Part shown: piece by piece, positions 751 through 39,485 of the stretch
How the letters are laid out: each line of letters opens with the position of its first letter
How positions within the stretch are numbered: position 1 is the first letter of the stretch
NCBI GenBank assembly: GCA_965178125.1
Contig: OZ237761.1
Coordinates: 186,001-250,000, forward strand
Direction of reading: 5' to 3'
Source: Bilabrum cf. latius
Lineage: Eukaryota
Length of the DNA: 64,000 nucleotides
Position numbers and translations under genes: made by a program
Notes under the pieces: model-generated
Told to the model about the DNA's origin: nothing
The model's database searches: none
The model's input: the letters and a program-made list of their open reading frames with translations, nothing else

Positions 751-3672
751 TCAAGCCGTCTCGGCGATTCCCTCGGCGATGCGACCAACCTGCTCCTCGA
801 GCTCAACGGCTAGTCCACGGATGACCTTCCCGAGCACTTGCTCCGCCATCCCGCAGACTGCTCGCACGTGCTCGCTTCGGCCGCTCCCAGCGGTTGCGAC
901 CGGATGCGGAGCACCTGCCCCATCCTGCGACGCGGGGGGAGCGCCCGACGCCTCGTCCACCATCCGGAGGTGCCTGGCGAACCTTGCCGAACGTTCACCG
1001 ATCGACCGGATCTCATCGGGCCGCAGTGCCGGGAAGGAAGGGGGCGGCACGCCGTCGGCGATGTCCCGTCGAACTAGCCGTTGAGCCGAGGCAGAGGCCC
1101 GAGCCACGGCCTCCTCCACAGCCGCTGCCTGACGCTCCCTGGCGCGCGGGTCTGCCATCGAGCCCAGGCGGGTTTTGCCACCTTCTGTCCCAGCTGCTGC
1201 AGGGTCCACCGGATCGGGCCGCGCACCACTTGCGTGTCCAGAGCCTGCCAAGGCGACCGCTCCATTCTTGTTACGGTTTGGACCAACTCGGAGTCGCCCT
1301 GCGGCTCGCCTGGCGTCCTGCTCCGCCAGCCGCTGCGCTGCCTCCTCAGCGACCCTCCGGGCCTCTTGTTCCCTGGCACCCAGCTGCACCGCGGTTGCAA
1401 CCGCGGCCTCGTCGGTCCTCTCCGCCCTGTCCACGGCCTGCCGGGCCAGGGGCAGCACCTGTGAGACCCGGAGAGGGCTGGCGTGCTACACACTCGTCAC
1501 ACGATCTTCACTCGTCACATCGTGCATGGAATCGACGAATGGGTGCCGTGTGGCGGCAAAGGGGGATTCGGGTGAGCAGACCTCAGTCTGGCTTGAGCGG
1601 CCATCGACTGAGGCACCGTCACCATTGCGCGATCCAGCTCCCCCCACCCGAACCGCAGTGGGCTGCAGCCTGCTGGAAGCAGCCGTAGTGGCATGATGCG
1701 TGGCGTGCATCGCCAGCCACGCGGGCAGCTTTTGCTCTCCTTCCCGTCCGCTGTTCCCTGGGTGCGCGCTCTCGTTCTTGTTCCCTGGCATCCTAGCACC
1801 GCCCATGGTACTACCCACCCCACCCCCGGGGGCCCCCATGGTCCCCGTGGCCCTCGCCAATTGTTCCTCCAGCCGCCTCCTTCTTGCTCCGTGAGGATCG
1901 CCGCCCACGATCTCCAGAGGGGCCGGTTGCAACTGCCTGGCACCGGGCCCAAACAGGAACTCGGCTGTGCGGACAACATCCGGTCGTTGCGATGGCTGGA
2001 AGCCGCGGGTATTTCCTTGCCCATCACCGCCAGTACCAGCACCAGCACCAGCACCAGCACCAGCACCAGCACCAGCACCAGCACCAGCACCAGCACCAGC
2101 ACCAGGGCCAGGGCCAGGGCCAGGGCCAGGGCCAGAGGGAACAGACGGGGGCTGGGCGGCAGGTGCGTGCCCCGGCAGAGTGGGGGGCTCCGTCCAAGAG
2201 AACACCAACGGACCGCGCGGCGCCACAGCATGCGGAACCTCGGTTGCGCGAGGAGGGATGTTTTGTTGTCCTCTTTCACTTCCTCTGCCACGCCCCTGTG
2301 GTGCCCAGGGCTAGCCCATTCTTGCTGACGACTGTCTCCTGCTTTGGGATGCTCTCCTTGATCCGCTTTTACCGCCTCCCTAACGACGACTTTGGCCACC
2401 CTGCACGACACCAGTTGAGTTCAAGGCGTGTCTCGGCGCCTGTGCTACGCTGCCGGGTGCCGCAATATAATCGCGAAGCGGACCGGAATCAAGCTAGACC
2501 ACATGCTATCGGCCTTCGCCCAACGTCGTTACACCTGACGGTATTCGGCTTGGGAACAAGCCTGCTCGCTCACTCAGGCTGCCTGGGTACAGCGGCTTCC
2601 GTCTGGCACCACCGTGCAGTGCACCGTGCCCCCTCCGCCTCGGGGGAACGAAGCCCGGCCCGGGGTCCTGCCCCGCAAGGAACTTTCTCAGCTGTTCCCT
2701 GCGGCGTTTCTTCGCGAATGCTCGCCGACGCTTCTGGTCCAGGGCCTGGGCACGAAGCCGTGCGCGGCGCCGCTACGGCGATTCCTGCGGAGCCTCAGAG
2801 CCGGGCTCCGAGCCGTAATCGAATGTGTAGTCCTCGCGCCCGCTGTCGAAAGCGCCCGAATCGTCCGCGCGTGGGTCCGAGCCCCGGTGGCCGGCCGTCA
2901 AGTCTGGCCTGCGACCATTTTCTTCCCTCCCTTCGGCGCCTTCGGCGCGCGCGCGTGGACCAGGGGGCGTGGGTGGATCCACCTCGGTCACCGCGCGGCG
3001 ATGCGGCCCGTTGTTCCCTGGTGGGTTCCTACCTGCTGTGGCAGCGTGGGAAAGCCTCGAGCGCGCGACTCTGGTCCGGCTGCGACCAGCCTGAGCACGT
3101 GCATGTGGATGTGGATGTGGATGTGCGTGGGCGTGCCTTGGTGGCCTGTCACTGGCGACGCGACGACGCGCGAGCAGCTTCTCTTTCCGCCTTTCGCGCC
3201 TTGCCTCCATTGCGAGTTCGTCGAAAGTGACCCCGACAGGCGCTGCTTCGCTGTTCCATTCACGTTCCGGCCTGCTGGCAGACCGGCTGCGTCTGTCGCT
3301 GCTAGTTGACCGTCCCTTGCGCGCGCTGAATCCATGATGTGTGGGCCTTTTTGAGACCGCTCTAGGTAGCTTCTTACTAGGTCTGCCGCGCGGTTGCATG
3401 ATTTGCCGGGGATTGTGCCTCGCAAGCCCCTCGATATCTTCCAGGTCGGCGTCGTCGAAATGAGCTGGGCCGGTTGATTGTCTACGGCTCTGGCCGTATC
3501 GCCCCGCAGCATGAAATGACACATCATGCTCTAATCCATCACTGGCGGGCGGGTCATGCCTGGTAGATTCGTGGCGCCGTTCTGGGGCGACAACCTGAAT
3601 TCCGTTGGAAGGCCAAGCGGTGTCGCGAGACTCAGGCTCGTGTCTGGACCACTGCAAGTCTAGAGATTCCAT
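751..3672 (-). CDS. Hypothetical low-complexity/coiled-coil host protein, ~970 aa with TAG read-through
   Basis: Track ORFs 2773..3672, 1486..2226 and 751..1458 share one frame, with only TAG (no TAA/TGA) between them; ends at TGA. Confidence 0.65.
2030..2135. repeat. Hexamer microsatellite (CCAGCA)n then (CCAGGG)n, encoding a (PG)n(AG)n tract
   Basis: Directly visible tandem hexamers. Confidence 0.95.
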
Positions 3673-6146: not shown

Positions 6147-9100
6147 TCACACTCTGCCTGGAGATGCAGCGGCCATGCGCCCATTCTGACTCGCCCAGGG
6201 TGTCGCCTTATATCCACGATCACCCAGACCAACGCCGCTGCCCCCGACGGGCCCTTCCGCTGCGCCTGGCGCCGCACCGCCGCTGCCCCACTCTTCGACT
6301 TCGTCCTCGTCATCCTCGTCATCCGCACTCATCACATCCAGCAGGCACACCAGCTGGTCTACGGCCGCGGGCCCGTCCGGACCTGCGATCGCAGCGGCAG
6401 CCGCAGCCTCTCCCACGCCCCCCGCAGCCTCCGTACCGAGGAGCGAGCCCGCCACGGCCCTCACGATCTCCAGCACAGGCGCGCTGCCCAGCTGCTGACG
6501 GAGGTGCTGCCCCGCGGCCCGCAGCGGTTCGTTGTTCCCCGCGAGGGCCATCCGACGGGCGGCTGCCAGGCGGCTGAGCACGGCCCGCTGGTGAGAAGGC
6601 AGGGACCTGAGGCACAGCCGAAGGAGGTGACGAGTGGCGCGCTGCAAGGGAACGCTGGCCCAGCCCGCGCTCGTCACACCGGTACCGCCGCTCGTCACGT
6701 CACGCAGGACATCCACCGCCATCTGCAGCGCCGCCACGGCCTCTTGTTCCCTGCCCTGACCCATGCGATCGCACACCGCAGCCACCTGCTGCAGCGACGC
6801 CAGCCGCGCCGGGTGCCCCTCGGGCAGAGAGGCGAAGAGGATCGCCCTGCACTTGCGGGCAGCCACCAGCGCTCCCTCGAGCTTGCCCTGCTCAGCCATT
6901 GCATCTGCGAGGAGGAAGCAGGCTCGCGCGATGCCGTCCCGGACGCCCGCTGTGGCGCCCAGCGCACTGGAAATGCTGACGCCATGGGCGGCGGAACCGG
7001 CCGCTCCAAGCACGGACGCAGCCTCCGCACCCGTGCGGCGGATGACCGCAGCACCGAAGGCATCGCTGTCACCGCCCGTCTCATCCTCTCCCCCGCTCGA
7101 AATCGCAGCACCGCGCCGATCACTGCTCCCAGGATACGCGACGTACGAGTCGTCCGACTCCATCAGCACCAGAGCCCTCTCGAGGTGGGGCAGCGCCTCC
7201 TGTGGGCGGCCCGCCCTCCGCAGTACCCTGCCCAGCCGCAGCACCAGAGCCGCCACCGCGCGGTGCCTGCCCCCCAGCACTCCCTGGGCCCCTTGCACCG
7301 CCTGCTCGAGCACCTCGGCGGCGTCACCCGGGCGGCCAGCTGCATCCAGGGCCTCGGCGAATGCCGCCCCCAGGTGGGTCAGCAGCGGATGTTCCCTGCC
7401 GAGGTGGTGGGCCGCGGCCTGCAAGGCAGCAGCCTGGATTCCCTTCGCCTCCTTGGCTCGCTCCTCACCCCCCCGTAGTGCGGTGGCCTGGGCCAGGGAA
7501 CACAGCAGGCGGCCAGCCAAAGAGTGCCCCCGGGGCGCGTGCTCCAGCCCCGCCCTCGCCGCTTGCTGCGCCTCGCTGGCCAGGCCCGCGGCGCAGAGCG
7601 CGTGCGACAGGCCCAGGCTCGCGCGGGCCTCCTCCAGCCCAGAGCCGAGCGCATCTGCCGCGTCGGGGGCGGCGGCTCGCGCCGCCTGGGCGATCGCCAG
7701 TCGCAGCTGGAAGGCAGCCACGGCCTCCATCGCGGCAGAGGCGGCGACCCGGTGCCGGCTGGGGGATCCACCAGTGGATTGGATCCCGCCGCCAGCAGCA
7801 GCAGCTGCTGCGCCGCCCGCGCGGAGGAGAAGCTCCTCGCCCGAGTGAGCGAGGAAATCCCGCTCCGAGTCGTCCGATCTGCGTCTGGCCACGGCGGCCT
7901 GCACCGCAATGCCCTGCACGTCTTCCACCGCGAGCGGGTCGGGGAGCCCAAAGTCCACGCCGGCCGTGAGGTGCGTGCTCGTGGCATCGTGCGTGCCCCG
8001 CGCGCCCGCGCCCGCAGCGACTCGCCTCTCTACGCGCACGCCGGTGTGGTGCTGCAGCGCGAACAAAAGCGCCGGTTTGGCCACCGTGCAGCCCCTGGCC
8101 GCGCGTGCGCCGCCCTACGATGACGTCATCGAGCCGAGCCCCCGCGGCGACGCCCCCCCGTCCGCCCTTAGCCTGTATGCGAACTTGGCGTACACGCTGG
8201 GCACCACGACCTCCCTCCAGAACAGCGCAGAGTCCTCGCTGCTGCCCAGGCACAGGTTGAAGAAATCCACGGCCACCGCCCTGCACCTGGCGGCGAGTGC
8301 CTCGGCGTGCGCGTGCTGCGCCCCAGCGATCGAGGCCTCTCGGGAGCCCTTGCCAGGCAGCCTGCCGCTGGACGCGCGGCGCCGTCCCTCGTCCGCCACG
8401 CACTGCCTGAGGTTCCGCAGCAGCACGTGCTTGCAGGCCCGCGCGACCATCTCGACCTCGCAGGCCTCCCTGGCGTGCAGCGCATCGCACGAAGACGCCA
8501 GCCGGCCCAGGTACCTTGCGTTGACACCGGCCCCGTGCATGGCCACGGTGAAGCCGTGGCTGTCCCCGGGCAGCACTGCAAGGGAGTCTAGCTGCCTGGC
8601 GAAGGAGGGGATGGCCTTGCCGAGCAGCGCCTCGGTGGCCTTGCCTGCTTCAGTGTCCATGGCGGGGGCGTCGGGCACCTGACCCATCCTGACGTCATCC
8701 TCGTCATCCTCGCCCGGGTTACCGTCCTCCTCCTCGTTGCCCACGTCGACCGCGTCGCTCTCCTCTTGTTCCCTGCGCCTGTCCGCCTCCTCGTGGGCCT
8801 CGTGGTGTGCCCTGAACGCGTCCGAGGAGACCCTGAAGGGAAGCTTGCGGACCAGCTCGGGCCTGAGGCACTGCGCGTCGATCTCGTCCGTGCCCGGGGC
8901 AGGCATGTCCGCGGGCATGAGCCTCGCGAGGTTCTGCACGTAGAAGCGCCGGTCGTAGCCCTGGTGACCCACGGTCACCGCCGACAGCGGGACGGATATG
9001 ACACGAGGCTCGAGGGTGGAGGGGTCCTCGTGCTGGCGACCCGCCGCGCGGGCGGCTGCGTAGCACACCGTCTCCATCTGGTGCGGGGCCAGATTCAGCC

Positions 9101-12100
9101 GCCTGCCCATCTGGCGCAGCATGCGATGCAGGAGCGGAGAGCGGTCCAGAAAGGGAGCGTCACCTGATTCCTTGCCGTAGACGAGTGTCTCCGCCGACTC
9201 GAGAGGGGGCACGGCAAACGCGTAGATCCTGTATCCGAGAGAATCCACCACGCACGAAAGGGGGGTGCTCACCGGCGGCAGCCTCCTTCTCTCCTGCCCC
9301 GGCAGCGGGGCTCCCTTGGATCGCACCCACTCGCGGTGCAGCTGCACGGCGGCCTCGTGCACCAGCCGCTGGCCCCTGAGCTCGTGCCCAGTGACCTTGC
9401 GCTGCACAGCCGCAGCAGACGTGGCCGTCCCCAGCCGCGCGGATGCGGCCAGGTCGGCGGACGATGCGCCGCCACTCCCAGTGTTGGCTGCGGCGTTCGT
9501 GCCTTTGCTCAGCTGGAACAGGATGCCGTCATGGAAGTACGTGAGGCTGCCTCCCTCTTCGTCTTCGTCCTCATCATCTTCAGCACGTGTCTCGCCGTTG
9601 TGCTCCTGGTGCTCGATCGCGCGGATGCTCTGCACGTGCGCAGGAAGGCCTATCTCAGAGACGATGCGGGCCGCAGCCGACGTCACCGCGCCGACGAATC
9701 GCGCGTGGAAGGCGGCGAGACCCACGGCCTTCTCCGCCGCCTGGGTGAACGTCCACTCCTTGAGCTCGAGGAGCTGCTGCCACCGCTCGTTCCATTGCTC
9801 CGGGGGAACCTCCTGCCCCGCCACGGCCTGCACGGTGGCGCCCAGGTCCATCGAGTCCACGGTGCCGGACTCGTCGTGGAGGCCGGCGGACCCGGAGTGC
9901 ACTGCCGCCGACTCGTCGTACTTGGAGTCGCCACCGTGCACTGCACCCGCGGGGCTGCCGCCCCCCAGGCTCCCGGACTGACCGACGCCAGCAGCAGCCG
10001 CTGCTGCTGCTGCATCCCATGCGGCTCTCTGGTCCGCGGGCGACATGCCGAACAGAGCCGCTTCGCTGGTTGTGGCCTCGGACTCGAAGTGGTGGTGGAG
10101 GCCCAGCCCAGAGCTGCCAGTGCCCGAGCGGCCGGCGCTGCCGCCGAGCAGGTGCCTGGGCGAAACGGCTCCCCTGCTACCTCCGCGTACCCCAGGCGCG
10201 AACAGCCGATCCACGTTAGACTGCGCGGCGCCGTTAGCGGAACCGATGGCGTCCACGGGCGGCAGCGGAACCTTCGCCGCGCTCAGCACGGCATCCCCCG
10301 GCACGCCCCCGCCGGGCCCTCCGCCGTACCCGCTCCTTGTTCCCTGGCCGTTGATGGAGGCCATGGCTGCGTGAAGCGCCTGCACGCTGGCCAGGGACGC
10401 CAGCTGCACGTCCACGCCGCCCGACCCCTTCGCCTCCAGCTCCCCCCGTCCTCCAGCCGACGCGGGAGACCGTTGCTGCTGTTCCCTGACGCGAGCACCG
10501 GGGAAGGGGGACAGCGGGGCTTCCTTCTTCGGACCCGTGGAGCCATCTGCCGCTCCTCCCCCTTTGGGGCGGGATACCAGAGCGGCTGCGGCGCCCGACC
10601 CGCCCAGCGAGCGACCGCCCTTGCCGGCAGCCCCACCGGCAGAGGTGGGTGCCGTGGCAGACAGGAAAGGCGATGAAGGGTATTCCGACTCCGAGTTGCT
10701 GCCCCCCTGCTGCGTCGGGGTGCCTCCACCGCTACCACCCACCGTGCCGTACTTGGCCAGCCAGGAAGGCACCTTGCTCTTCGCCTTATGCTGTTCTTGC
10801 TGTTGTTCCCCCCCAGCGCCATTGCCACCGTTCGGCCTGGTCATGGACTTGAGCTTGTCCGGGGACGGAGCCGACTTGCTCAGGTGCGACGACGATTGCG
10901 CGGCGCCGCTTGGTTCCGCAGGGACGCCCTGCAGCACCCGCGCGCTCTCCTCGAGCCGCCTGTGGCCCCTGGCAAGAGCCGCCTCCAGCTCCGCAAGTTC
11001 CGCAGACATGCCTGCGGCGCCGCCTGCACTCGTCACGCCGTCCACGAAGTCGGACTCGTCGAGCCGCACCGGCCTGCCCTCTGCGTCCACGACCGTGCGC
11101 GCCACCGTGTTGCGGTCGTCCTCGTCCTCGTCGTCTCCGTCGCCAGCCAGCCCACCGCCGGAGGCGCCGCCGACGGAACCGAGGCGGCCCGCTGCGCGGC
11201 GCCTCCGGAGCGCTTCCTGCTGGTCGGTTCGACGAACGTTCTCGGCGCGGCGGCGGAGCTCCTGCTCGAAGTGCTGCTGGATCCTCTCCGTGTACACGTT
11301 CCAGAATGCCAGGAACTCGGGCCGCGTGAGCACGCCCTGCCCCGTGGGGTCTGCCTGCCGCAGCACAGAGGCCCTGGGCCCCGCCTCGGGATGCCTCTCA
11401 AGGGGGCACCGCAGCCGGCCCAGCAGGCCGGGCAGCCTGCTCACAACGAGGTACCCGCCGTCCTGGCTCGTGTACGCGTCAAACTCGCGGAGCATGTCGA
11501 TCTGGGCGGGGAAGGAGGGCGCCCGCAGCGGGGGCTGCTGACCGGGGCTCAGGGCCCCAGCACTCGTCACACCAACGACGCCACCGCTGCCGTTGGTGCC
11601 CGGAGTCTGCCTCCCGCGCGAGGCAACGCTCGCGGTCGCGGTCGCATCCGCAGGCACGCCCCCGCTGCCCCCTAGCCTCACAGAGGCCGTGGCTGACCTC
11701 GCGCCCGCCAGCGCCCTCTCCGCCCTCTCCAGCGCATCCGATGCCCCCGCATGCGCTGCCTCCACCGCGGGGTCTGCCCTGCCGGACACGACCGACCGGG
11801 GACCCCCGGGGGTGCTGCTGCGGGAGGCGCCGCGCGATTGCGGAACCGGTTTGTCGTCCGCCTCGAGGTTGGCCGGCAGCGGCTTGTCCTGGTGCGCGTG
11901 CGCGGCGCCGCCGCTAGCGGAACCTCCGACGGAGTGCCTGGAAGCCGACGCGGGCTGCTGCGGGGGCTGCGCAGGCTGGGGCTGTGGAGCCCCGGCGAGG
12001 CCGTCGCTGCCATCATCGGCAGCAGGGGGGGCGGGGGCGGGGGCGGGGGCCGAGCCAGACACGGAACCCGCGCGGCTGCCCCCGATCTAGGGAACGTTCG

Positions 12101-20901: not shown

Positions 20902-21977
20902 ATGGCAGCAGCAGCGGAAGATAAGAAGATCATTGCAGTATTCGGTGCGACTGGAGCTCAAGGTGGCAACGTCCTAAAAGGCTTGCAGGCCAGCAAGACG
21001 CCGTGGGCCATTCGCGCGCTCACCCGCAACCCCGATTCTGACAAGTCCAAGCTGCTCAAGGAGCAGGGATGCGAAGTGGTAAAGGTTGAGGCAAGCGACA
21101 AAGATTCCCTTGCGGCTGCCCTGAAGGGAGTGTACGGAGCTTTCGTGGTCACGCAGTTTTGGGAGAAGATGGACGGCAACCTTGAGCTGGAGCAGGGGAA
21201 GAACATCGCGGAGGCTTGCGCTGCCGCAGGTGTCCAGCACGTGGTCTTCTCTAGTCTTGAAGATACTAGAGAAGCGAACGCGGTGAGTATAGAAGCCGCA
21301 CTAGAGCGCTTTCATTCGCAACGCGCCAAGTGCGATGACGTGTCAAAGATCTGCCTGCCTACTTGCCATGCAACTCGATCCCGCAGGCTGGCGAGCTCGC
21401 ATCTGACACGCTTGAGCCATTGCAAGACAAAGATGGCAACAAGTGGATCATCCCCCACTTCGATGCAAAGGGGGCCATTCAGAAGGTCATGAGCGACATG
21501 AAGCTCCCCGCCACCTTCGTGCTGTACTCCATGTATCTGGACAACTTCATGTCGCTCATGAAGGCCCAGAAGTAGGAAGATGGATCTCGTGTGATCGCTG
21601 TTCCAATGAGCGACAAGCCTACGGGCCTGATCAGCGTGGAGGACGCGGGCCCTGCCGTGGCCGCCATCTTCGAGAACCGTGACGAGTACCTGGGCAAGAG
21701 TGTGGGCCTGGCCAACGAGAACGTGGGCATGGACAAGGTCGCGGAGGCCTTCAGCGAGGCCACGGGTGAGAAGTTTGTCTACGCGCCCGTGCCCATGGAA
21801 GCCTTCGCCGCCTTTGGGTTTCCCGGGGCAGAGGAGCTCTCACGGATGTTTGGTGCTCTCTACTGCGCCGATCAGAAGCACTGCGTGAGGGACCCGGAGG
21901 CCACGAGGAAGCTCAACCCGGCTCTGAGGACGATCAAGGAGTGGGCAGCTGCTCACAAAGACGAGCTGCTGGCATGA
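20902..21977 (+). CDS. NmrA/HSCARG-family NAD(P)-binding protein, 2 exons (intron 21283-21386)
   Basis: IAVFGATGAQGG Rossmann motif, HVVFSSL, PHFDAKG; GTGAGT...CAG intron; in-frame TAG 21573-21575 inside the domain; ends at TGA. Confidence 0.9.
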
Positions 21978-23899: not shown

Positions 23900-24555
23900 G
23901 GGTTCGGCACGAACCTGAACCGGCCGGGCAGCGAACTCCGCCAGCCTGAGAGTGCCAGTGGTACCATGCAAAGATGCCAACCATGCTCTACTGACCAATG
24001 CAAACAAGTGCAACAGCCCCGCAAAGCAAGCGCAGACACGCGGCGAGCGCACGAGTGAACAGCAAACAGATAGACCAGCATGCCACCGTGGCACGCGCAA
24101 ACGAGGGCCGTCCGCGTGGCACGACGCACTGCAGTCCAACCAGGTTGCAACCACTCGAATCAAGCCCCATGTCTGCGAAAGCTAGCACCAATTCTTCATT
24201 CGAAAGTGCCGCCGCCGGCGCTCAAACGCGAGCACGACACGCGACCGGAATCTCAACTCGAGAGCAGGATGCCCGTCGCTTATCGCGCACGATAAAACGC
24301 CGCGACGGACTGAACAAGGCGCGGTTCACCACCAACAATCCCAACAGCCGAGATTGCGACATCAATCACCGCTCCTTTAAGGCAGTCTACACCCCCACCG
24401 CGCAGAGCGACTCCATGCACCCGGCTACTCACGACACTCACAGCCTCGGCGCATCCGGCCGCGAGGCCAAGATGCACAAGATCGGAGCAGGGAACAAACG
24501 GGGCATAAAGTCACGACACGATGGGGTAGACGCAAGCGCAGTGCAATGCACCTGC

Positions 24556-26160
24556 TCAGAGCTCCTTGCCGATGGCGCCGGCCACGACGGCCCGCAGCTG
24601 CTCGGGGGTGGCCCGGAGTCCCTTGGCGCGGTGGGGCATCTGCTCCATGGCCTGCTCGATGAGGGCGTCAACGGAACCGGCGGCCTCCACGGCACCGCGC
24701 ACGCTGTCGGCGGCGAGGAGCGCACGGCGGGCGGACTCGGCGGAGCTGTAGCGGTTCAGGCCGGCGCGCAGGACACGGGACCGGGGGCAGCCGGGGAAGG
24801 TGGACACGGCGAAGTCTGCGACCTCGGTGGCGTCGGCGGTGGGGGGGAAGTTGTCGTTGGATCCCTGGTCGTCGTCGCCCTGGCACTGGTTGCTCATGGG
24901 GCACGTGGCGTTGTTGATCACCTTGAACATCGAGGGGTCGATGGCACCGGCCTTGAACTGCGAGGGAACAATCGGAGGAAAGGACAGCACTAGAAGGGTG
25001 CACAAGAGAGGGAGCGGTGGGGCATGGTGCGGATGGATGGCCATGACAGCTTGCATGCTTGACAGCCCAAGTCTTGCTCAACGACATCAACCCCCCTCAC
25101 CTGGTCGTAGCTGGCGTTCTGGTGGATGAGCTGCTCGCTGCCGAAGCCGATCGAGTCGGCCTCAAGCACAGGCCCGGCGTTGGAGCGGCTGTAAGGAGAG
25201 GAGATGTCCGTGTAGAAGTGGGACTCCTGCACGGTCAGGTTGAGGATGGGGATGGCGACGCGCCAGAAGATGTCCTCGACCTGGTGGCCGGCGATGGTGG
25301 TGGCGCCCTCGTCCGTGGCATTCTCGCCGTAGCCCAGGCGGGTGAGGGGAGCGTCCTAGGGGTCGATGGGGCAGTAGGACTGGCACGTGTGCGTGGCATC
25401 CACAGCGTACTCCTTCAGGGTCTTGAAGTCCTGCACGACACCGCTGCGAAGATCGTCGAAACTTTCTGGAAATATTTATATGTATGGGATGGTTTTTGGT
25501 GGCGATGCAGTGAACGTCTAGCGATGCAGCGAGCCTGGCGAGGACACGTCTTGCGAATGCTGCTGATCGGCGCAAATGGCTGATGATTTCCGTGCGAAGA
25601 CTTGCGAAAGCTCACCTGCCATCAGGGTTGGCCAGGAACACAGCCTGCTGCGTGACGGAGAAGTACTGCTTGGCAGCCTCATACACGGTCTGGATCTTGC
25701 ACTGAGGGGCCTTGGCAGAGCAGCACAAGTCTCCGTTCGGGCCGTTGTACCCGCCCTGGTCGATGGCGACTGCAAAGTGAACAAGAAAACGAAGTAAAAC
25801 AAAACAGACGATGGTAGTAGGTTTCCGAAAGAGACCCGCCTGGCATGCCAAGCCAGAACCACAATGGACTCGAGCGAACAACTCGGTGTGCACGGGTAGA
25901 CGGCAGAAATTCGAGCGAATTCAGGAATAGTCAATGTTCAGCTGTCCTCAATCAAAGTAAATTCGCTCATGTGGACTGGATGTACCCCAAAACTAAGGAA
26001 CAAGATGGTGTCTTCAAGCAGAAATCTATGGATCGAACCAGCCGCCAGTGTTCTCACCAGTCTGCACCACCACAGCGCTCCAATCGGGGGCAAACTGGGG
26101 GAGCTGCTGAGAAAATACAGCAGAAGCAAGCGTGGCAACGACAGCGGCGGCAGTCTTCAT
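24556..26160 (-). CDS. Secreted multi-exon protein, possibly ependymin-related
   Basis: Signal peptide MKTAAAVVATLASAVFS, several GT-AG introns, C-terminal FKAGAIDPSMFKV..C pattern; exon boundaries approximate. Confidence 0.5.
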
Positions 26161-26344: not shown

Positions 26345-27507
26345 TCATGACCCAGCGTCTCCAGATGCTGGTCCCGGGCTGTCGGCCTCGCCCTCTGCCT
26401 TGGCCCCCCACCCACTGTGCTCGGATCCGATCCCACCGTGCCTCGCTTCAAACCCCGCCAGGATAGCGTCCACCTCTGCTGCACTTGCCTCCGATAGAGG
26501 AGCCAGCGGCAGGCGGACCCCCTCCCAGGGAACAAGGCCCTTCAGTCGCATGGCTCGCTTCAGGGGCACCGGGCTGCTCTCAATCGCAAGCATGTCCAGG
26601 AGAGGCACCAGCATGCGATGCACCTTGCCCACCCCGGCCAGGTCGTTCCGCTCGCACGCATTCCAGAGAACCTTCACCTCCCTTGGGGCAAGGTTCCCCA
26701 GGACCCCAACGATTCCCCTAGCCCCCATTGCTGCCAGGGGTGCAGACACGGCGTCACCCCCCGAAAGGACGCTGAAGCCCCCAGCAGGAGACGGCGACTC
26801 GGAGTCAGAACAGCCAACGGATGCGAGGATTCGGCCGGCGGCCACAAAATCACCCGAAGCGTGTTTTACGCTCCGAATCCAGGGATGCTCCGCGAGCCTC
26901 GCGACGGTGGCAGGCTCGATCGATACGGCGGTGCGGCCCGGGTTGTTGTAGAGCATCACCGGCAATCCGACCTTTGCGACTTCCATGAAATGGCGATAGA
27001 TGCCTTCCTGGGTTGGTAGGCAGTACGGCGGGCTGGCGACGATGCAGCCGTCGGCGCCGGCTTCCTTGGCGGCTTGGGTGAGCGAGACTGCCTCCGCCGT
27101 TGACTGGCTCGTTGTGCAAGCGATTACTTGGACGCGAGGCTTTCCAGTCTCTGAGGCGACCCTTTCAGCGGCTTTGATTGCTACTCCTACGCATTGTATC
27201 TTCTCTTCCGTCGTGAGGGCCGATACTTCACCCGTGCTGCTGCACTGCGAGAAAATACTAGAGTGGTGGATTGCTCGGCGGGGAGGTATCGCCGCCAGAG
27301 CGAATGGAGAGTGCCAAACGAGCACAATGTACGCACAGTGCAAATATGAATCCCTTCTTTAGCCTGAATTTCGCAAAGCTTAGCGAACGTGTACCAGTCG
27401 ATCGTCAAGCCAGAGTCGTTCCCAAATGGAGTTATCACTGCGGTATACACACCTGCAAAGGATAGCGACTCTAGACGATCAGATGATTTGGCAGATGCTC
27501 CTGCCAT
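26345..27507 (-). CDS. dapA: Dihydrodipicolinate synthase (DapA/N-acetylneuraminate lyase family), intron-containing
   Basis: YTAVITPF, SSTGE, SPPY, YNNPGRT and VKHASGD (Schiff-base Lys) motifs; intron around 27250-27350. Confidence 0.8.
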
Positions 27508-27705: not shown

Positions 27706-30132
27706 TCACTTCCACTGCACGCCACCAATCGCGTAGTTCACCCGGTCCTCCGTCACGTTGCGGATCTGCACGCCAACCACGACCGCGCGCTCATTGGGAA
27801 CGAAATCTACCGGTGGAGTAAGCTGGAACACGTACCCGCCACCCAGATTATCGGCGTTGTCGGCAGCATCAGCAATCGCAGCCCCGGTGGTGTTGGGCAC
27901 CCGCACCTGCCCCGCCCGCTGCCCATCGACGTACACGAGAAGATCCACGGGCACGTTGGTGGACATGTTCAGGGAGAAGCTCAGCTTCGGCTGCTGCAAC
28001 AGTGCCGATCCCACAGCTCCACTCGTCACACCTGTGTTGGCCAGCCAGACCACGTCCATGTCTCTCGCGTCAGGCGGCACCCCCTTGGCCGGGCCGGGAC
28101 CCGAGTGCACGCCGAGGCCCCTGAAGCACCGCGCATCCCCGCAGTAGCTGCACGGACCGCTGGCACCGCCCGCAAGTCTCGTGTACATCTCATCAAAGCC
28201 CCAGGTCCCGCTGTCTCCAATGGGCACCCCCGCGGTGACGTCCACGGGTGGATTCTGCGCCCCCTGCTGGACGCCTCGTAAGATAGAGCTGTTGCTCGGG
28301 TCATCGTGCACGGACTGCATGGCAGAGTAGGTGATCGTCACGTTGTAGGGCCCTACGAAGGCTCCGAACCACTCGAGGAAATCCATGCCGCCGGCCTGCA
28401 GGCCGTCCAGGTACTTCTTGTCCAGCACCGTTTGTTCCCTGCTCTCCCTTGCCCACGTCTTGGCATCGATGTTGGACTAAGGGATGCTCCTGTTGGCTCC
28501 AGGCTGCACGATGTTCCCCGCGTAGTCTGGGCCTCCCTCGTACCCCACGAAGCGGAGGCCGTTCCAGCGGGCCAGCGCCGCATAGGTCATGACGGGTGTG
28601 GCCGTCCAGTTGTTCCCCGGACCCGGAATCATGCCGTCTATCACGGTGCTAGATATGTTCAGCACCATGAGCGCGGTCAGGTTGAACCAGTGCGTGGCCT
28701 CGCCCAGCCCAAAGTACGGCGCCCCGGCCAGAGCGTACACGAAATCTCCCGGATTGCCCTTGTTGTGCCGGATCCACTCGAGTGCGTTCTGGGCGGGCCC
28801 GCCCGTGAAATCACCCGTCCCTTGCCCGCCGCCGATCTGGGAGGCGTAGATCCCGCGGAACCTATTGTTGCGTGCGCTTTTGCCGAATACAGATTCGAAC
28901 GTGTCGAGGATGCCAGCGAGCCTCCAGGCCACGCGGCGCCAGGCCCAGTACCCCTGGTTGTTGCACCCGTCAAAGTTCAGGTTGCCTGGGTCCCCCCGCT
29001 CTTTGACGTCCAGGATGGCTTCGTGAAGGTTCCACGTGGCCACCTCAAAGGTCCAGTTCCAGACCTCGTTGGCCCACTCGATGTACACGATTAAATCATC
29101 GTCTAGAGTGTCTTTCAGGAGCTACGCGAGACCAGTCACATAGTTCTCCGTGGCGTTTGGCGGCACGTTGATCCAAATGTCCCTCCTTGCCTCGTTCGCC
29201 AGCTGTATGAGCACCTCCCACGGTGTGGCCCCGTCGCATTTACGCTTGTTAAACTCGGTCCAGCAGGGGACTGCGGGGTTGTTGTTCCAAGTTGGGGCCC
29301 ATGCTGGGGCTCGGGTGCTCCAGTCCGTCTGCCCAGAGTCGACCGCGTCTGTGGCAGTCATGGTCCGGAGCGGGCCGGGCCGCGGAGCGCTGGCACTGCC
29401 ACTGGCAGCTGCTTTGCCATCCAGTAAGCTAGCTTCGGGAGATCCGTCCTCGGTTTGCTTCGGCACAGATCCGCTCATTTGGATCATTTTGAGGTATGCT
29501 GGGTGGAACGTGTCCTTGGGCCCGCATTCCGGCGATCGCAGGCTGACGTTGGTGAATCCAACCGACGGGTTGCTCGGTTCCGAGATGCGAAGGTCGAGCA
29601 TGTCTCCCGGCTTGCCACCCGTGGCGTCCACGATAGCCGTAAACGTATTTGATGCGGTGTCAAACTTCTAATTGATAATTGGGAACATCCAGGATGTGAC
29701 TGTCGCGTTGCCCTTCGCAGACAGTTGGTACTAGAGGCCATCACCGGCCCGATTGAAGGACTGGATCCAGATGCCATAGGAACCAAGAGGCCATCTGGTA
29801 CTAGAACACTTCACACCCCCCTGCCCACACTCCATTGATCCATCGTACGGCGTATGATTGGAACCAAATGGATACTTCGACTGCTTAACAAGATCGCAGA
29901 AAATGCTCTGCGCAGCAAGAGACAAGGAGTTATCAGAGTGAAGAATCGGTCGATGCAAATAAGAAAACCACAAGACTACACTCTCCTCTTCAATCGGCTC
30001 ATGATGCAATAGCACGCAAGCGTCCATGCAACTCACGATGTCCGAATAATATGAAGAGTGACCTACATTTAGGCCAACGCTGTATCCCCAGCCCACTGAT
30101 GCAAGTGCTAGTGCGCAAAGAACATATTTCAT
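27706..30132 (-). CDS. Secreted putative glycoside hydrolase / cellulose-binding-type protein
   Basis: Signal peptide MKYVLCALALAS; WINVP, YIEWANEVWNWTF and YEGGP motifs; four same-frame ORFs joined by TAG (29731, 29668, 29122, 28477); one probable intron near the 5' end. Confidence 0.6.
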
Positions 30133-30246
30133 AGCATGCATACCCGTAGACCGTAAGAATGCCGAACGCAAGTGCAACAGTTTGCTCCGATCGGATCCAA
30201 CGAGCGATCAATCCTATATCCTACACTACCAGCATTTACGTACACA

Positions 30247-33200
30247 ATGAGCGACACACAAATTGAATCGTATGGGCACCCACGTGATGAGGATGATTTG
30301 GAGCTGCGAGAATCGATTTTTGGCCGGGCCGCGAGAGTGTTTCGCAGCTCTGTTCAGTTGGAATCGGTCTCCCAGTTTCAAACAATGAGAATGGTATGGG
30401 AAAGCTGTAAGAGGTAAATTGTAGGAGTCTCGTCTGGCCTCAGGACGGAGTTTTGGGCCTTTTAAACGTGCTTGGCGCTCCCTGGAAGGCACTTACTGAA
30501 TCACGTGGAAGTGTTCGTTTCGCATTCTACAATTGTTCGCATTGTTCGCAGTCCGAGAGGCAGGTCATATCAACATTGCAATGGCGGTCATTGGATCATG
30601 TGAGGAGTATTGTGCACCTGGCTGCTCTCCCGATATCCGCAATCTCAGCGAGCCACTCGTGACCAAGTCCGAGGCAATGGCATACCCGTATCGCAGACTA
30701 TTGCACAAGAAACCCGGAATACACCAAGCAAGACTGGGATTCTGCAGCAAAGCGCTTCCTGGAGGCAGAACATGACGAGGACTCGCTCCTCGAAGAGCAG
30801 GTGCTCGCCATGCGGCGAGCCATGGAGCGGCTCGCCGCGCAACAGGGACTCGCGAAGGGCGTCGCACCGGTCATGCCCCGAGCAGCGCCAGAGGGCGTGC
30901 TGGCAGACCCTGGCAACAAGGATCATGGCGACTCGCAGAGTGACGGTGAGCACTCGTCACACAAAGGGCCGACGCCGGATCCGTGCACGTTCCTCCTAGG
31001 GCTGGGGTACCCCCCGCTGGCAGAAGGCGAGGATGGGGACGGAAAACCGGAAGTAGACGGGCGGGATGCAGGAGCTGCCGACACCGGCAGTAGCAGAGGG
31101 GGCGCCTCTTCTGGCGCGGGAAGCAGCAACAGCAGCAGCAGCAGCAGCAGCAGCATCAGCGGCATTGGTGTCAGCGGCGGAGGCAAACCGGCCGACTCGG
31201 ATAAACAATTCGTCTGGGGCGAGCACATGCTGCAGACCCTGGCACCCGAGCCGGAGCGCCTTAACGACGACATGGCCTATTTTCTGGAGCTGAGGGTGTG
31301 GCTGGCAGCGGCGCGGGCGGTGTACAAGCCCAGTCGGTTTGTTGAGAGGCTCGCGGCCGGTCTGGGCCGGGCTCGGTTCGTGTGCGGGGAGGCGAAGCCA
31401 GCCGCTGAGGCCCTGGGTCTGGCGAGCGCAGGCGTGTAGCATTCGGAGCCAAAAAGCAGCGGAGTCGAGGACAAGGAGGCGGAGGATGAAGATGAAGATA
31501 GAGATGGCCGTGAGGGCGAGGATGGTGGTGGTGGCAGCGCTGGCGCGTGCACTCAGGCGCTGCTGAGCTTCGGGCGATTCAACAAGAAAAAACTAGCCAA
31601 GGAGAAAGAAGAAGAAGCCGAAGGCGAGACGCTGCAGCTATCAGACAAGGTGAGCGAGGTGGGTGCTGATTTCGCAGACGACGCCGACGCCTCATCTGTC
31701 CACGTGGTCATGACCAAGGAACGTTCGGAGACGTTCCTTCCCGCGTTCGTACTCTACATCGACGAGCAGCGGGAGGCCGTTGTTCTCTCGATCAGGGGCA
31801 CTTCGGAGATGCGTGACTGGGTCACCGACGGGGCGGGCAAAGTGGTCCCTTTCCTTGGAGTGGGCCGGGCGCACACTGGCATGGCGATGGCAGCGCGGCT
31901 GCTGCTCGGTCTCACGCCACAGCAGATGCGAGACGCGGAACTCTTCCACTGCGGCGAGAGCGAGTGGGACTCGGAGCGGAAAATTAAGGCCAGGGAGCGG
32001 GAGGAGGGGAGGAGCACAGCCAGGGATGCGCTCAAGCAGGCATCATCAACTACTTCGTCTGCATCTGCGTCTGCTTCTGCTTCCGGTGCATCGGAAGGCG
32101 CAGGAGGAGGAGCAGCAGCGGCAGCAGCGGCAGGGGACGGCGAGTTGTCAGGGAGCAGCGGAGACGACGACGACGACGATACCCCAACCGGCGCTGGTGC
32201 ATCTCCGATCAATCCCGCCGACTCCATCGGTGGATCGGAGGTGGATAAACTGGTGAAGGAGGTCTTCGAGGCGCACAAGACCTCCAGGCGGCAGATGGCT
32301 GGGAGCCACGACGGCAGGCCCGCGCGGAGTCGCTCGGGCGGCCAACTCGCCATGAAATTGGAGCGGATGGAGGAGGAAGCAGTGCACAGACTACGTGCCA
32401 TGGAACAGGAAGCTGCCGTTGCATGGGGCAGCAGAGGGACGAGCAGTGGCAGCGGCAGTGGCAGTGGCAGTGGTAGCAGTGACGGCAGCAGCAAAGGGCC
32501 CAAGAAGGAGGACGAGGACGGTGATGGTGACCCGGAGGGCGGTGATGGTGACCCGGAGGACGGCGATGGTGACCCGGAGGGCCTGCTTGCTGCGGCTTAC
32601 GGCGGGAAGGAAGAGGCCAGAAAGGCCATACGGTTTCTCAGGTAGCACGGGGCCGGCCATCCCAGCGACGGGCACAGGCCGGCAATGGTGCGCTTGATTC
32701 AGAAGTTGCTTGACGACAGGCCGTCCTTCCGCATGATCGTTACGGGTCACTCACTGGGCGCGGGCGTGGCTGGCCTCGTGACTATGCTGCTGGCGCGACA
32801 CCTGCGGTTCAGCCCAGCGGCTTTCGACAGGTGCGGAATCCCCAACGAATGCAAGGGTGGTCAAAGAGGCTCTGTAAGGGGTGACGATGAGCGCGACGCC
32901 GAGGACGGCTCTCGCTCCCGGCAGCAGCAGCAGCAGCGGCGCTTTCCTTTCTAGGCCTTGCCACTCCACTGCTACGGATTCGCCCCCCCCGCCTCTTCCG
33001 ACGAGTCGCTGTGCATGGCCACGCGCGGACTCGTCACATCCATCGTGGCTGGAGACGACATCATCCCCCGTTTCTCTCTGTCGAACGCCCTGCAGGCCTA
33101 CGAGGATTTGCTCGAGGCGCACGGGAAGTGGTGGCCCGAGTTCGACCGGGACGTCTTGTTGGCTGACTGGAGGCGGAGGGCGGGGAACGCCGTGAGGATG

Positions 33201-34664
33201 GCTGGGACGGCAGTGTCACACGCGGTGGCCAAGTCGGCAGCCGCTGGACTCGGAGCCGTAACCGGCATCCTCGGAGCAATCGCTCGGTCTGCTTCACCGG
33301 CCCGCTCGGGGGCTACGGCCACGAGGGTCATGCTGGCGGGCGGCGCCGGTGCCTTGGCCGGCGGTGCTGCGGCTTCGTACATGCTGGATGACGCTGGTGA
33401 TGACGAAGACAGGGGAGGGGTCACTGCTCGGGGCGAGCTGGATGGCGACTCGGAATCAGAAATGCTCCGGGAGCAGATGGGCAGGGCGAGGGAGGCGCTG
33501 CAGAGGGCGGTCGATGGGGGAGAGGGAGAAAGAAGGGGGGGGGGAGACGGTGAAAAGAAGGATAAAGGCAGCGGTGACAGTAAAGAAGACGCTGGTAGTG
33601 AAGGCAACACAGTGACCGATGACGAGACCAAAGCCGCAGCCGATGGTGGTGCATCCGAACAGATGGAGAGGGCCACGGAGGAGAAGCCCTCCAGCTACCT
33701 GCCGGCATTCCTGCGGAACATCGGAGGCGGAGGCGGCGCCGCGCAGCCTCCTCCGGACCCCGCCGCGGTGAGGCGACAGAGGTTGCAGGCAGCCCGCATG
33801 CACAGAACCTCGCCACCAGGTGCAGTGGTGCTGGTCCAGCTGCTGGGCAGGGGGCGCGTGGTCGAGGCCCGCAAGCAGCGCCGCAAGGTCATGCAGGCGA
33901 TCGCAGCAGCAGACGAAGCTGAGGCAGTGAACCCGCCATCCAGCGGGGGTACCGGGGCTGGAGCAGGCAAGGGTGAGGGTGAGGGCGGGGACAAGCCTTC
34001 GGCAGATGCTGAGGCTGAAGCTGAAGCAGAGGCTCTCAAGAAGGAGCAGGAGGAGGTGGAGGCGATCCGGGAGCAGCTGAGGGAGGCCATGGCGAGGAGG
34101 AGGACCCTGTTCTACCGGGAAAACGAAGATGAAGACAAAAAAGAGTCCAACTCGTCTTCTGGAAGCAGCCGGGCTGCCGGAGAGGGCGATGGGGATGGGG
34201 ATGGGGATGGGGAGGTTCCCAGCTCTACCCTTTCCCCGCACGGTGCGCAGCAGTGGGTCGAATCCAGGGCGTGTAGGACGCACCGCTGTTCCCTGGATCG
34301 CATCTTGTTCTCTCCGTTCGCGGTGCGGGACCACCTGTGCGGGACGTACGAGGCCGCGCTGGATGATAGACTGGCGCGGCTGTGCGAGGCCCCTGCCACT
34401 GATGTGGGAGATATCGAGGTGGAAGGAGTGCTTGACGAAGAGGATGAGGAGGAGGAGGAGGGTGGGGGTGGCCTGAGCGCGCTTGGGCTGGCGCAGATGG
34501 GACTGGCGACGGGGGGATCGGCAGGGGCTGCGGAAGCGGCGGGCGTGCAGGCAGCCGGTGGGACGGGGGACAGCGGTGCTGCGGCGGCTGCGGGCGATGG
34601 CGATCAGCAGGATGGTGGCTCTGAGGACAAGAGAGGGGGGATCTTGGGCTTTTTCGGGCTCTGA
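30247..34664 (+). CDS. Class 3 lipase domain protein with long low-complexity insertions; 5' exon structure uncertain
   Basis: VVLSIRGT...DWVTD, AHTGM, VTGHSLGAG, YGFAPP and GDDIIPRFS motifs, collinear only if TAGs at 31437, 32643 and 32952 are sense. Confidence 0.85.
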
Positions 34665-34766: not shown

Positions 34767-37210
34767 ATGCGTAATTGTATGGCAGTACTTGCAGTAGTTT
34801 TGGCAGCCTCAGCAGCTGGGGCTGCTGGCAGTGGACTGTAGGTCTCGCTGAGCACAGACGGCTTCGTCTCCCTCTCGATGAACGGCGCGTCATGGATCGA
34901 AACGAACACCACAGGCGTGTTTGCCGGGAATTCGATGCAGACTAACAAGAATGGCGGACTTACTCTAATGTCTACCAAGGTCTCGACGGGTTACGACTCG
35001 TTTGGATAGTTCCAGCGGACCGCATTCGCGTGGAAGATCCAGTCGACTGGGGAAATCATGGGCACCGCCGTTCGAGACTACACCGGTAACGGAGTGGAAA
35101 CTGTCATATTTGAGCAAGTAAGAATAGTTATGATTGAGATGCGTCTAAGTAAGGGCTTTCGGCCTTAATCACGCCTTGGGGGTACCACTAGACACTTCCT
35201 TCCTTTGCGTTCATGAGAGCGTCGCAGCATTTCCCGAAAGGAGTATCTAGCATTGGCTCCAATGACCGTGATGCCGTGGGCACTGAGTATCCTGTGTTTG
35301 AAACTCCAGCGGCAGACGACGGGACGGCCCTCGGGTACTTGACCTGGGCCGGCAACATGGCGTGCCCCGGTGCCCAGCGTGAGTGCACGCACTCTGGCGC
35401 CTTCAACGCTTCGACCATCGCGGGGCTTCCGGGGGGCATCAGCGGCGGCGCCCCTCTGGTGCTGTTCGATTCCGCGAGCGAGCAGAACGCCCTGGTGATT
35501 TCCCCAGCGAGCAACTTCATGGCGGCGTCTCACGTGTACAAGAACGGTGCAGTGCAGGCGGGGCTGCTGGGCAGTGTGACGAGTATCCCTGCCGACTACA
35601 CTCTAGAGACGATCGTTCACGCCGGACAGGGCGTCACGCAGACGATGCTGGAGTGGGGCCGCGGTCTGCTGCACCGCTTCGGCAAGGAGCCCATCAGCGT
35701 GCTCTCCGACAGGGACCGCACCATCGACTACCTGAGCTACTACACGGACAACGGAGCCACCTACTACTACTGCACGGAGGACGGCAAGTCCTACTCTGAG
35801 ACCCTGGAGGATGTGGCCGCCCACATGGTCAAAGAGGACATCCCGATCCGATCCATGCAGCTCGACTCGTGGTGGTACTACAAGGGGCCCACCGGTGGAG
35901 TGGCCAACTGGACTCCCCGCCCCGATGTGTTCCCCGATGGACTGCAGGCGGTGCATGAAAAGATCGGGATGCCGTTTGTGGCGCACAACCGGTACTGGGA
36001 CCCTAGCAACGTGTACGCGAAGCAGAACGGCGGGCAATACGACTTTATTGTCGAAAAGTACGCCATCCCAACCGAGGAGCGATTCTGGGTGGATCTGTTC
36101 CGGAACGCGAGCGACTGGGGCATGGCGGTGTACGAGCAAGACTGGCTGCACAACGAGTTCGAGAACATCAACGCCACGCTCACCTCTGCCACTCTGGGCC
36201 GGCAGTGGCTCCTGCAGATGGGCGCCGGAGCCGACGCAGCAGGCATCGAGGGAATCCAGTACTGCATGGCCTACCCCAGGCACGTGATGCAGAGCGTGGA
36301 GATACCGGCGGTGACTCAGATCCGCGCCTCTGACGACTACCAGCCCGACAATGATCAGTGGGCGCTAGGCGTGTCTGCCATTCTGTCGCACTCGCTGGGT
36401 CTCGCGCCGTGGAAGGATGACGCGTACTCGTCCACGGCTAAGCAGCAGTGCCATAAGTACCACAGCGACAACGAGCCGGCTGCTGTGCTAGAGATGATGG
36501 TGTCCACTTTGTCCACTGGCCCCGTGGGCCCATCTGACCTGATCGGCGTGGAGAACCGCACCAACATCATGTCCACTTGCACCGCCGATGGCCGCATCCT
36601 CAAGCCCAGCGAGCCCGCCACTGCCATCGACCTCACCTTCCAGCAGCGCGCGTTCGGTAGCGGCGGTCCCCAGGGCGAGCTGTGGAGCACCTTCTCAGAC
36701 GTGGGTCCCTACCGGTGGCACAGCGTGCTGAGTGCCTCCATCGACGCCCCCTTCACCGTGCAGCCAACCATGCTGAAGGGCTTCAACCAGAGGCACTCGG
36801 GGGGCACAAATGCACCGCCAGCGCCCGCCCAGTACTACGCTTACTTGCATGGCAGCGACTGGTCGGACGTGCGTGTGTTCTCTGAGATCCACCTGCCCGC
36901 CAACGACAAGACCACACCGCAGCTGTGGAACGCCGCCCCCGAGCTGCCATCAGGGCACGCTCTGCTGGGCGAGCCGAGCAAGTTCGTGCCCGTGTCTCCC
37001 AACCGGTTCAGCGCGCTCGAGGCCGGCAGCGACGGGTTTTCGGTGGTGGTGCGCGGCAGGCAGGGGGAGGCCGTGGACGTGGCAGTGTTGGTGCCTGGGT
37101 CTGGAGCTGTGCGCGGGGCGGCGAATGGCGCGTCTGTGCAGGTGGTGCACTGCGTGCTGCCCGACAGCGGGGCAGCGACGCTGCGCGTGCCCCAGATGAA
37201 TTGCGCTTGA
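34767..37210 (+). CDS. Secreted glycoside hydrolase-like TIM-barrel protein (intron about 35118-35228)
   Basis: Signal peptide; exon 1 has two in-frame TAGs; GTAAG...CAG intron; YYTDNGATYYY, QLDSWWY and YEQDW motifs. Confidence 0.7.
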
Positions 37211-39458: not shown

Positions 39459-39485
39459 ATTTTAAGTCATTTTCTAGTTTAAAAA

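Follow-up and report, generated by a model that had tools for sequence, protein, structure and literature searches.

UAG as a sense codon, most probably for glutamine, in a GC-rich eukaryotic nuclear locus and in the mavirus-like element integrated within it

To our knowledge, the codons UAA and UAG nearly always change meaning together. The reading of both as glutamine (Gln), denoted UAR→Gln (NCBI table 6), is found in many ciliates, hexamitid diplomonads, oxymonads, ulvophycean green algae, and the aphelid Amoeboaphelidium, while the reading of UAG as Gln with UAA kept as a stop is that of NCBI table 15. TAG is likewise read as Gln by the "code 15" phages, whose code differs from that of their bacterial host and whose genomes often encode a suppressor tRNA. 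No more than a handful of eukaryotes with split UAA and UAG are named in the accessible text of two reports (PMC11687900, PMC5304391). According to the same text, UAG alone has become Gln in Iotanema spirale, Protocruzia tuzeti, and two phyllopharyngean ciliate lineages, with Hartmannula sinica and Trochilia petrani among the ciliates concerned (PMC11687900), and UAA is kept as a stop in the fornicate I. spirale (PMC5304391); UAG means leucine (Leu) in one rhizarian and some ciliates and serine (Ser) in Scotinosphaera (PMC11687900). Here, we describe a stretch of 64,000 nucleotides (contig OZ237761.1, positions 186,001 to 250,000, assembly GCA_965178125.1, listed under Bilabrum cf. latius; hereafter the window), in which both the host genes and an integrated mavirus-like virophage element carry numerous in-frame TAG codons. 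In our assessment, nuclear UAG has very likely been reassigned here from stop to sense, most probably to Gln, with UGA as the working host stop and UAA still terminating. This type of code is known from few eukaryotes, and the host of the window would add another case.

The GC (guanine plus cytosine) content of the window is 56–72% from base 1 to ~38,000 and again from 61,400 to 64,000, with a stretch of 28–37% GC in between. The GC-rich part is eukaryotic nuclear DNA with GT..AG introns, seven of which are absent from RNA-derived contigs of public sequencing runs (21282-21385, 24958-25100, 25444-25615, 25770-26057, 27245-27336, 29908-30036, and 35118-35227). The RNA nature of the three runs used (X5, X6, and X7) is taken from their spliced contigs, as none of the listed runs is recorded as RNA; X5 and X6 belong to one study and X7 to another, while a fourth run, X1, is a DNA run. 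All of the evidence was drawn from the window and from relatives retrieved with it. The 129-nt intron 29908-30036, which lies in a glycoside-hydrolase-like gene, is a multiple of three and has no in-frame TAA or TGA, so that an ORF (open reading frame) scan passes straight through it. This calls for caution with the low-complexity stretches of other long frames that lack an RNA comparison.

The original prediction held that host genes are interrupted by TAG and never by TAA or TGA, and that they end in TGA, and both statements are borne out. All 11 host frames (nine listed and two minus-strand frames rebuilt from RNA joints) end in TGA, no TAA or TGA occurs inside the nine listed frames, and ~34 in-frame TAGs are distributed over the 11. 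Every TAG that had been singled out in the NmrA, lipase, FSH1, and Clu genes does lie in frame. Since both host and viral frames were bounded by TAA or TGA, these zero counts are partly built in, and a gene truly ending at TAG would appear extended. A conservative set of eight homology- or RNA-supported segments (6930 codons) contains 15 TAG, 0 TAA, and 0 TGA, whereas 29, 11, and 83, respectively, would be expected from its off-frame rates; omitted from this set are the frame 751-3675, the tail of a Na+/H+ exchanger, a WW-domain protein, the FSH1 N-terminus, both minus-strand genes at 24.5–27.5 kb, and the Clu frame upstream of 14156. Three tests are free of the circularity, namely the lengthening of ORFs, the alignment of homologues across TAGs, and the persistence of TAGs in spliced RNA contigs. 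By the first of these, the longest host ORF grew from 1323 to 2701 amino acids once TAG was freed, a far larger gain than was obtained by freeing TAA. A UAR→Gln code would place TAA in frame as a sense codon; none was found in frame, and freeing TAA lengthened the ORFs little.

The low-GC stretch between the host segments is occupied by the virophage-like element (Table 1), which is written in the same code as its host. Its 18 ORFs (5455 codons) contain 72 in-frame TAGs, which the original prediction does not mention, and end in TAA (14 ORFs) or TGA (4 ORFs). Under the standard code, the longest ORF of the element has only 302 amino acids, whereas reading through TAG yields ORFs of 942, 638, 564, and 484 amino acids; freeing TAA extends the longest ORF to just 381 amino acids, even though TAA is twice as frequent there, and freeing TGA leaves it at 302. 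For a frame of 932 codons, such as that of the viral primase, the probability of being free of TAA by chance is 2e-19. The tRNA and Rfam scans of the 64-kb window, element included, detected neither a tRNA gene nor any other Rfam match, and the virus must therefore rely on decoding supplied elsewhere. C-to-T decay of a dead element was considered as a source of the viral TAGs and rejected, as there is no in-frame TAA despite 135 CAA codons and the terminal repeats are 99–100% alike.

The viral ORFs also bear upon the claim that TAA, like TGA, has remained a stop, of which one part held and another found no direct counterpart among the host genes. TAA ends most of the viral ORFs and is absent inside the host frames, but none of the host genes seen here has it as its stop; from the viral ORFs and from this absence, we infer that host UAA still terminates. 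UGA, by comparison, ends all 11 host frames as well as the remaining four viral ORFs.

Six TAGs, at 21573, 29731, 29668, 29122, 28477, and 25356, are covered by spliced RNA contigs, and all six are unchanged, with 0 other letters. The spliced NmrA contig, found in X5 and X6 and partly in X7, has 0 other letters across 21573, and the X5 contig of the hydrolase-like gene, which spans 27578-29907 and continues for 165 letters past the joint, agrees with the window at all 2495 letters (0 other). The letters of the DNA run X1 are also identical to those of the window across the introns. These TAGs are thus neither spliced out nor edited, which was one way in which the original prediction could have failed. 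Homologues likewise extend across the TAGs. The hydrolase-like protein aligns with two choanoflagellate proteins (44% BLAST identity), one bacterial protein, and 80 metagenome loci; three of its four TAG sites are gap-free in these homologues, and the fourth falls in an indel-prone column that still bears a residue.

A related organism has the same trait. The metagenome contig L001 (1-4566, 56% GC) is syntenic with the window and keeps the divergently oriented lipase/hydrolase-like gene pair of 27706-34664. Over 473 codons, its hydrolase-like gene shares 72% identity with that of the window, and the single TAG in it coincides with the site of 28477, while its lipase ortholog is a frame of 774 codons with five TAGs, 0 TAA, and 0 TGA, in which one TAG occupies the site of 32952. 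These in-frame TAGs, two of them at shared sites, indicate that L001 comes from a second organism with this code, present in an environmental sample.

Taken alone, in-frame TAGs need not imply any reassignment, as a similar picture could arise from efficient read-through by a near-cognate tRNA, from RNA editing at UAG, from introns that keep the frame, or from pseudogenes in decay. tRNA-Gln can read stops at a low level in standard-code organisms, according to the part of PMC13192750 that is accessible, and the 129-nt intron of the hydrolase-like gene is an in-frame intron of the kind in question. However, the six TAGs in the spliced contigs are unedited and the same as in the DNA run, the homologues lack gaps at the TAG sites, and ~34 host and 72 viral TAGs have accumulated alongside zero in-frame TAA or TGA. 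Up to 12 TAGs occur in a single essential viral gene, which is beyond leaky read-through, and L001 keeps two of the sites. An explanation without reassignment is largely refuted and in our judgment scarcely credible, whereas we regard it as virtually certain that TAG is a sense codon in the host nuclear genes.

TAG could also be dual in function, serving as sense within genes and as a stop near their 3' ends, as in the ambiguous stop/sense codes of Condylostoma and the karyorelict ciliates. Two points count for this option and against a plain reassignment: frames bounded by TAA or TGA cannot reveal TAG terminators, and four frames have a TAG only 2–5 codons ahead of their stop, namely the exchanger (15452, 3 codons ahead of its TGA) and three viral ORFs (44923, 48710, and 56646), in all three of which it falls within the last 5 codons. 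The frequency of such near-end TAGs is nevertheless within chance (p 0.12), and the alignment of the viral integrase to the protein P0009 does not stop at the residue-532 TAG but extends into the chromodomain. All 29 frames, host and viral, run to TAA or TGA at plausible protein ends; the NmrA alignment, for example, reaches ≤4 residues from the C-terminus of the matched PDB chain. We consider a dual TAG very unlikely.

The identity of the inserted amino acid was assessed mainly from two genes. The integrase of the element, with TAG represented as X, was aligned with 149 of the best 150 HMMER matches, the database copy P0008 being left out. In three of its TAG columns, Gln makes up 55–82% of the residues: 122/148 at residue 187, 82/149 at residue 308, and 95/138 at residue 457. 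Residue 308 belongs to what we take to be the Pro-Gln motif just before the rve catalytic glutamate (Glu). Eleven of the 12 TAG columns passed the depth filter, and their log-odds sum to +2.5 for Gln, +0.5 for lysine (Lys), -11.6 for Ser, -11.9 for arginine (Arg), and -19.1 for Glu. When columns with a known query residue were bootstrapped, the observed Gln score was reached by real Gln columns at a rate of 0.68, compared to 0.058 for Glu, 0.047 for Arg, and 0.007 for Lys columns, and real Lys columns reached the observed difference between Gln and Lys in 0/5000 trials. The composition of the integrase points the same way, with 1.8% Gln and 2.2% TAG versus 6.0% Gln in homologues, a deficit that TAG would roughly make up. 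For the host, the four TAG columns of the hydrolase-like gene over the 80 loci gave +4.8 for Gln, +1.25 for threonine (Thr), -0.65 for Lys, and -2.6 for Glu, such that Gln ranks first in both one viral gene and one host gene.

Codon usage within the element provides a separate line of evidence. Its genes contain 135 CAA, 6 CAG, and 72 TAG codons, and the G-ending share is only 0.04 for Gln, far from the 0.37 of Lys (Fisher p 1e-17) and the 0.24 of Glu (4e-8); if the 72 TAGs are counted as Gln codons, its share becomes 0.37. Such a near-loss of CAG is what would be expected under AT pressure if CAG-to-TAG changes are synonymous.

A sense codon with some other meaning than Gln is the remaining alternative, for which Lys, Glu, and Thr would be the next candidates and Leu and Ser the other reported meanings of a UAG-only change, both of which occur in other eukaryotes according to the accessible text of PMC11687900. 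Lys is second in the integrase and Thr second in the host gene. In contrast, with the two genes combined, Gln is ahead of Lys by ~7 bits, and Glu, Ser, Leu, and Thr are at least 10 bits behind. The bootstrap of real Lys columns does not favor Lys, and the integrase is already Lys-rich (13.6% versus 9.1% in homologues) and Gln-poor. Furthermore, the viral near-loss of CAG would be expected only if TAG were synonymous with it. We therefore consider a meaning other than Gln unlikely.

Several observations do weigh against the assignment to Gln or fail to help it. Lys is only 2 bits behind Gln in the integrase sum alone, and the evidence for Gln from host genes only amounts to four columns in one gene. 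Integrase column 323 is mostly Leu or methionine, and others are variable, with mostly Lys, proline/aspartate (Asp), or tyrosine. An 80%-identical fragment of the viral ATPase (P0007), whose gene call ends at the site of the last TAG in the ATPase of the window, has histidine, Glu, and Asp at 3/3 TAG sites. By-eye comparison of the capsid proteins with their PDB matches gave D, K, N, and D for one and S, Q, F, and N for the other at the TAG sites, of which 1/8 is Gln. At the four TAG sites of the window where L001 has no TAG of its own, it has Glu, Gln, Thr, and asparagine (Asn), with its lipase aligned across 32643, where the Asn is found. The human NmrA-like chain in the PDB aligns across the TAG at 21573 and has alanine there, in a variable column. 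The TAG at 19782 falls within a WW-domain match that is below the Pfam cut-off, and the domain consensus at this position is presumably Asn. Lastly, the 64-kb window contains neither a tRNA-Gln(CUA) nor an eRF1 gene, and no peptide was seen. As judged from the alignments, the non-Gln sites are variable and mostly polar; they fit a codon that arises at tolerant sites but do not count as positive evidence. It should also be noted that the database proteins P0006, P0008, and P0158 have Gln at every TAG; as they were possibly called under a table in which TAG is Gln, they were not counted as evidence. The expectation that TAG positions match a consistent residue is upheld by the three Gln-rich columns and by the top log-odds of Gln, while many single sites are variable. 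Overall, Gln is the best-supported residue, as originally proposed, mainly through the viral integrase and one host gene, and we hold the equation of TAG with Gln to be highly probable.

Mechanistically, a tRNA-Gln with the anticodon CUA, one base removed from the normal CUG, would read UAG and not UAA, and eRF1 would lack recognition of UAG. This pair is predicted from an argument in the accessible text of PMC5304391, according to which no anticodon other than CUA can read UAG and still pass over UAA. In the virus, AT pressure would then have moved nearly all of the G-ending Gln codons from CAG to TAG.

Compared to the other UAG-only Gln codes (Iotanema, Protocruzia, Hartmannula, and Trochilia), the present one is alike in the change of UAG alone, in its best-supported meaning, and in the use of UAA and UGA as stops. 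It would also share with Iotanema the predicted tRNA-Gln(CUA) that is unable to read UAA (PMC5304391, in the text available). The host of the window is GC-rich (58–72%), with ordinary spliced, multi-gene nuclear DNA in which all 11 host frames end in TGA; in the cases described in the accessible parts of PMC11687900 and PMC5304391, by comparison, UAA predominates among the stops. With the UAR→Gln codes, it has in common the nuclear reassignment of a stop to Gln; in those codes TAA is also sense, whereas in the window it is never in frame and serves as the usual viral stop. The element resembles the code 15 phages in its many in-frame TAGs read as Gln, but unlike them it is a eukaryotic virophage-like element that matches the code of its host and does so without a tRNA. 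With mavirus and the endogenous mavirus-like elements (EMALEs) of Cafeteria, it shares the capsid matches, an rve integrase with a chromodomain, long terminal inverted repeats, a short target duplication, and a low GC content within a GC-rich host; it differs from them in the use of TAG as sense, in a Prim-Pol primase gene, and in that no family-B polymerase was seen in the element. Code-matched eukaryotic viruses are not unheard of, as a 2026 catalogue includes genomes of giant viruses whose annotation improves when a single stop is reassigned (PMC13524828, in its accessible part). Among the literature matches listed, with subscription journals and supplements outside the scope, there was neither a GC-rich non-ciliate with UAG-only Gln besides Iotanema nor a virophage with a recoded TAG.

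The suggestion that the host might be Cafeteria-like found no support, and nothing speaks for or against it except that the virus resembles mavirus. The named homologues of the hydrolase-like gene are from choanoflagellates only, although this is a single, patchily distributed gene, and for the exchanger a feature-based atlas look-up pointed weakly to Chlorophyta. An aphelid host was rejected: there is no evidence for one, and the TAA-ended viral ORFs do not fit the UAR code for which Amoeboaphelidium is cited in the available text of PMC5304391.

Table 1. Annotated features of the window, with the virophage-like element and its identified genes listed first (coordinates in window positions).
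Feature	Coordinates	Strand	Remarks
Mavirus-like virophage element	37982..61431		23,450 bp, ~30% GC, AT-rich, integrated
rve integrase with chromodomain	56640..58295	-	Pfam rve and Chromo; 12 in-frame TAGs
Primase (Prim-Pol) and P-loop helicase-like protein	40004..42802	+	PF09250, E 3e-13; 932 codons, 11 TAGs
Major capsid protein	44911..46797	-	PF22031 (MCP_V20_C) at its cut-off; 6 in-frame TAGs
Minor capsid (penton) protein	46840..47766	-	PDB 6g41 match; 5 in-frame TAGs
P-loop ATPase, probable packaging enzyme	48695..49762	-	6 in-frame TAGs
Clu/TPR gene frame	6147..14252	-	Pfam CLU, eIF3_p135, and TPR matches; ends in TGA
Na+/H+ exchanger gene frame	15443..19288	-	PF00999, E 5e-58, residues 246-659; ends in TGA
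NmrA-like gene	20902..21977	+	Two exons (to 21281, from 21386); Pfam NmrA on both; ends in TGA
FSH1 serine-hydrolase gene frame	22085..24325	-	PF03959, E 6e-29; ends in TGA
Secreted-looking protein gene, family unknown	24556..26160	-	RNA joints in three runs; ends in TGA
DHDPS/DapA-like gene	26345..27507	-	Intron 27245-27336; without TAG; ends in TGA
Glycoside-hydrolase-like gene, unnamed family	27706..30144	-	In-frame 129-nt intron 29908-30036; ends in TGA
Class-3 lipase gene frame	30663..34664	+	TAG at 31437, 32643, 32952; ends in TGA
Gene of unknown family	35228..37210	+	No Pfam match; after intron 35118-35227; without TAG; ends in TGA

The host genes differ in the number and placement of their TAGs. 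With TAG read through, the Clu/TPR frame has 2701 codons and contains TAGs at 14157, 13524, 12351, 12087, and 8115, of which the one at 13524 comes directly after four consecutive CAG codons and is followed by GGG CAG, confirming in the DNA letters the continuation of a CAG run that had been described. A search for relatives of the Clu region gave no match, as its 8000 candidates were swamped by low-complexity words. The exchanger frame has seven TAGs (17270-15452), all in its unconserved C-terminal part, and some of these, being outside both the homology and the RNA cover, may lie in introns. The FSH1 frame has TAGs at 22832, 22757, and 22535, plus one at 24182, and its PDB alignment stops short of the FSH1 TAG sites. 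The TAG at 14157 may precede the true Clu start, and this TAG and those at 24182 and 19290 are all probably upstream of true starts. The NmrA-like gene has the single in-frame TAG at 21573, downstream of its GT..AG intron, while those of the hydrolase-like gene are at 29731, 29668, 29122, and 28477. The gene at 24556..26160 has three introns (24958-25100, 25444-25615, and 25770-26057) and a TAG at 25356-25358, and the hydrophobic N-terminus of its predicted product suggests a secreted protein. For the DHDPS/DapA-like gene next to it, the nearest atlas clusters carry PF00701 and are all bacterial DHDPS. A 2810-letter spliced X5 contig (24016-27520, minus strand) covers both this DHDPS-like gene and the downstream gene for the secreted-looking protein; it could be a read-through transcript, the result of overlapping untranslated regions, or an assembly join.

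The element resembles mavirus-like virophages in its two capsid genes, one for a double jelly-roll major protein and the other for a penton of the virophage type, and also in its rve integrase, the inverted repeats at its termini, and the duplicated target site. In the PDB, the capsid proteins have matches to 6g45/6g43 (E 1.5e-15, major) and 6g41 (E 1.9e-12, penton), as well as to 3j26_N (E 4.5e-5); we take the 6g45, 6g43, and 6g41 entries to be those of mavirus, as the search tool names proteins only. For the viral ATPase, the AAA matches are sub-threshold only, and a protease candidate matches Peptidase_C57 with E 0.0047, below the cut-off. The helicase-like label of the primase protein is suggested by a GAGSGKT motif in its predicted sequence. 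In IMG/VR, no relative with the viral capsid protein was found, and an alignment of four integrase sequences returned 102 pattern matches, none of which is a relative. The public protein set does include full-length copies of the ATPase (P0006) and the integrase (P0008), both from a 48.6-kb contig and with each TAG given as Gln. These entries suggest that the element has already been called under a TAG=Gln table by some pipeline.

The element is cleanly integrated. Its terminal inverted repeats are ~1.4 kb long, with repeat arms of 719 and 678 nt that are 99–100% alike, and a 5-bp target duplication, GGTGT, flanks it at 37977-37981 and 61432-61436. Both ends bear the same 101-nt unit as direct copies, and one tip of the unit is complementary to the other. 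Between the viral ORFs (38285-61158), there is also a palindromic repeat of ~60-100 nt (GCCCSAAATTGCGG ... CCGCAATTCTGGGCGC), with 13 copies in one orientation and 8 in the other, which may be a viral promoter or terminator element; a 14-base piece of it yielded only single chance matches in 120 loci of IMG/VR. If the element and one GGTGT copy are removed, the left plus-strand ORF (37527-37981) continues in frame into the right ORF (61437-63303). The joined ORF crosses a TAG at 61453, and an ORF of 372 amino acids lies on the opposite strand at 61923-63041. Thus joined, the flanking ORFs are candidate genes, and the insertion of the element may have split a host gene.

Standard-code annotation of this DNA would cut short 8/11 host frames and 15/18 viral ORFs. 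We tentatively propose, at slightly below even confidence, that the window represents an independent and unreported origin of UAG-only Gln in a GC-rich, non-ciliate lineage comprising at least two related organisms, together with the first virophage-like virus seen in a variant host code, one in which CAG has been swapped for TAG. An added case in a GC-rich, TGA-ending organism would be a data point on the uncoupling of UAA and UAG, and a more notable one should the host turn out to belong to an unreported lineage. The virus follows the code of its host down to the choice of synonymous codons, as hardly any CAG is left and one in three Gln codons is TAG. If the proposal is true, such viruses could be tied to their hosts by the code. 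Code matching of this kind could help to assign uncultured virophage-like contigs to hosts, and it implies a barrier to host switching.

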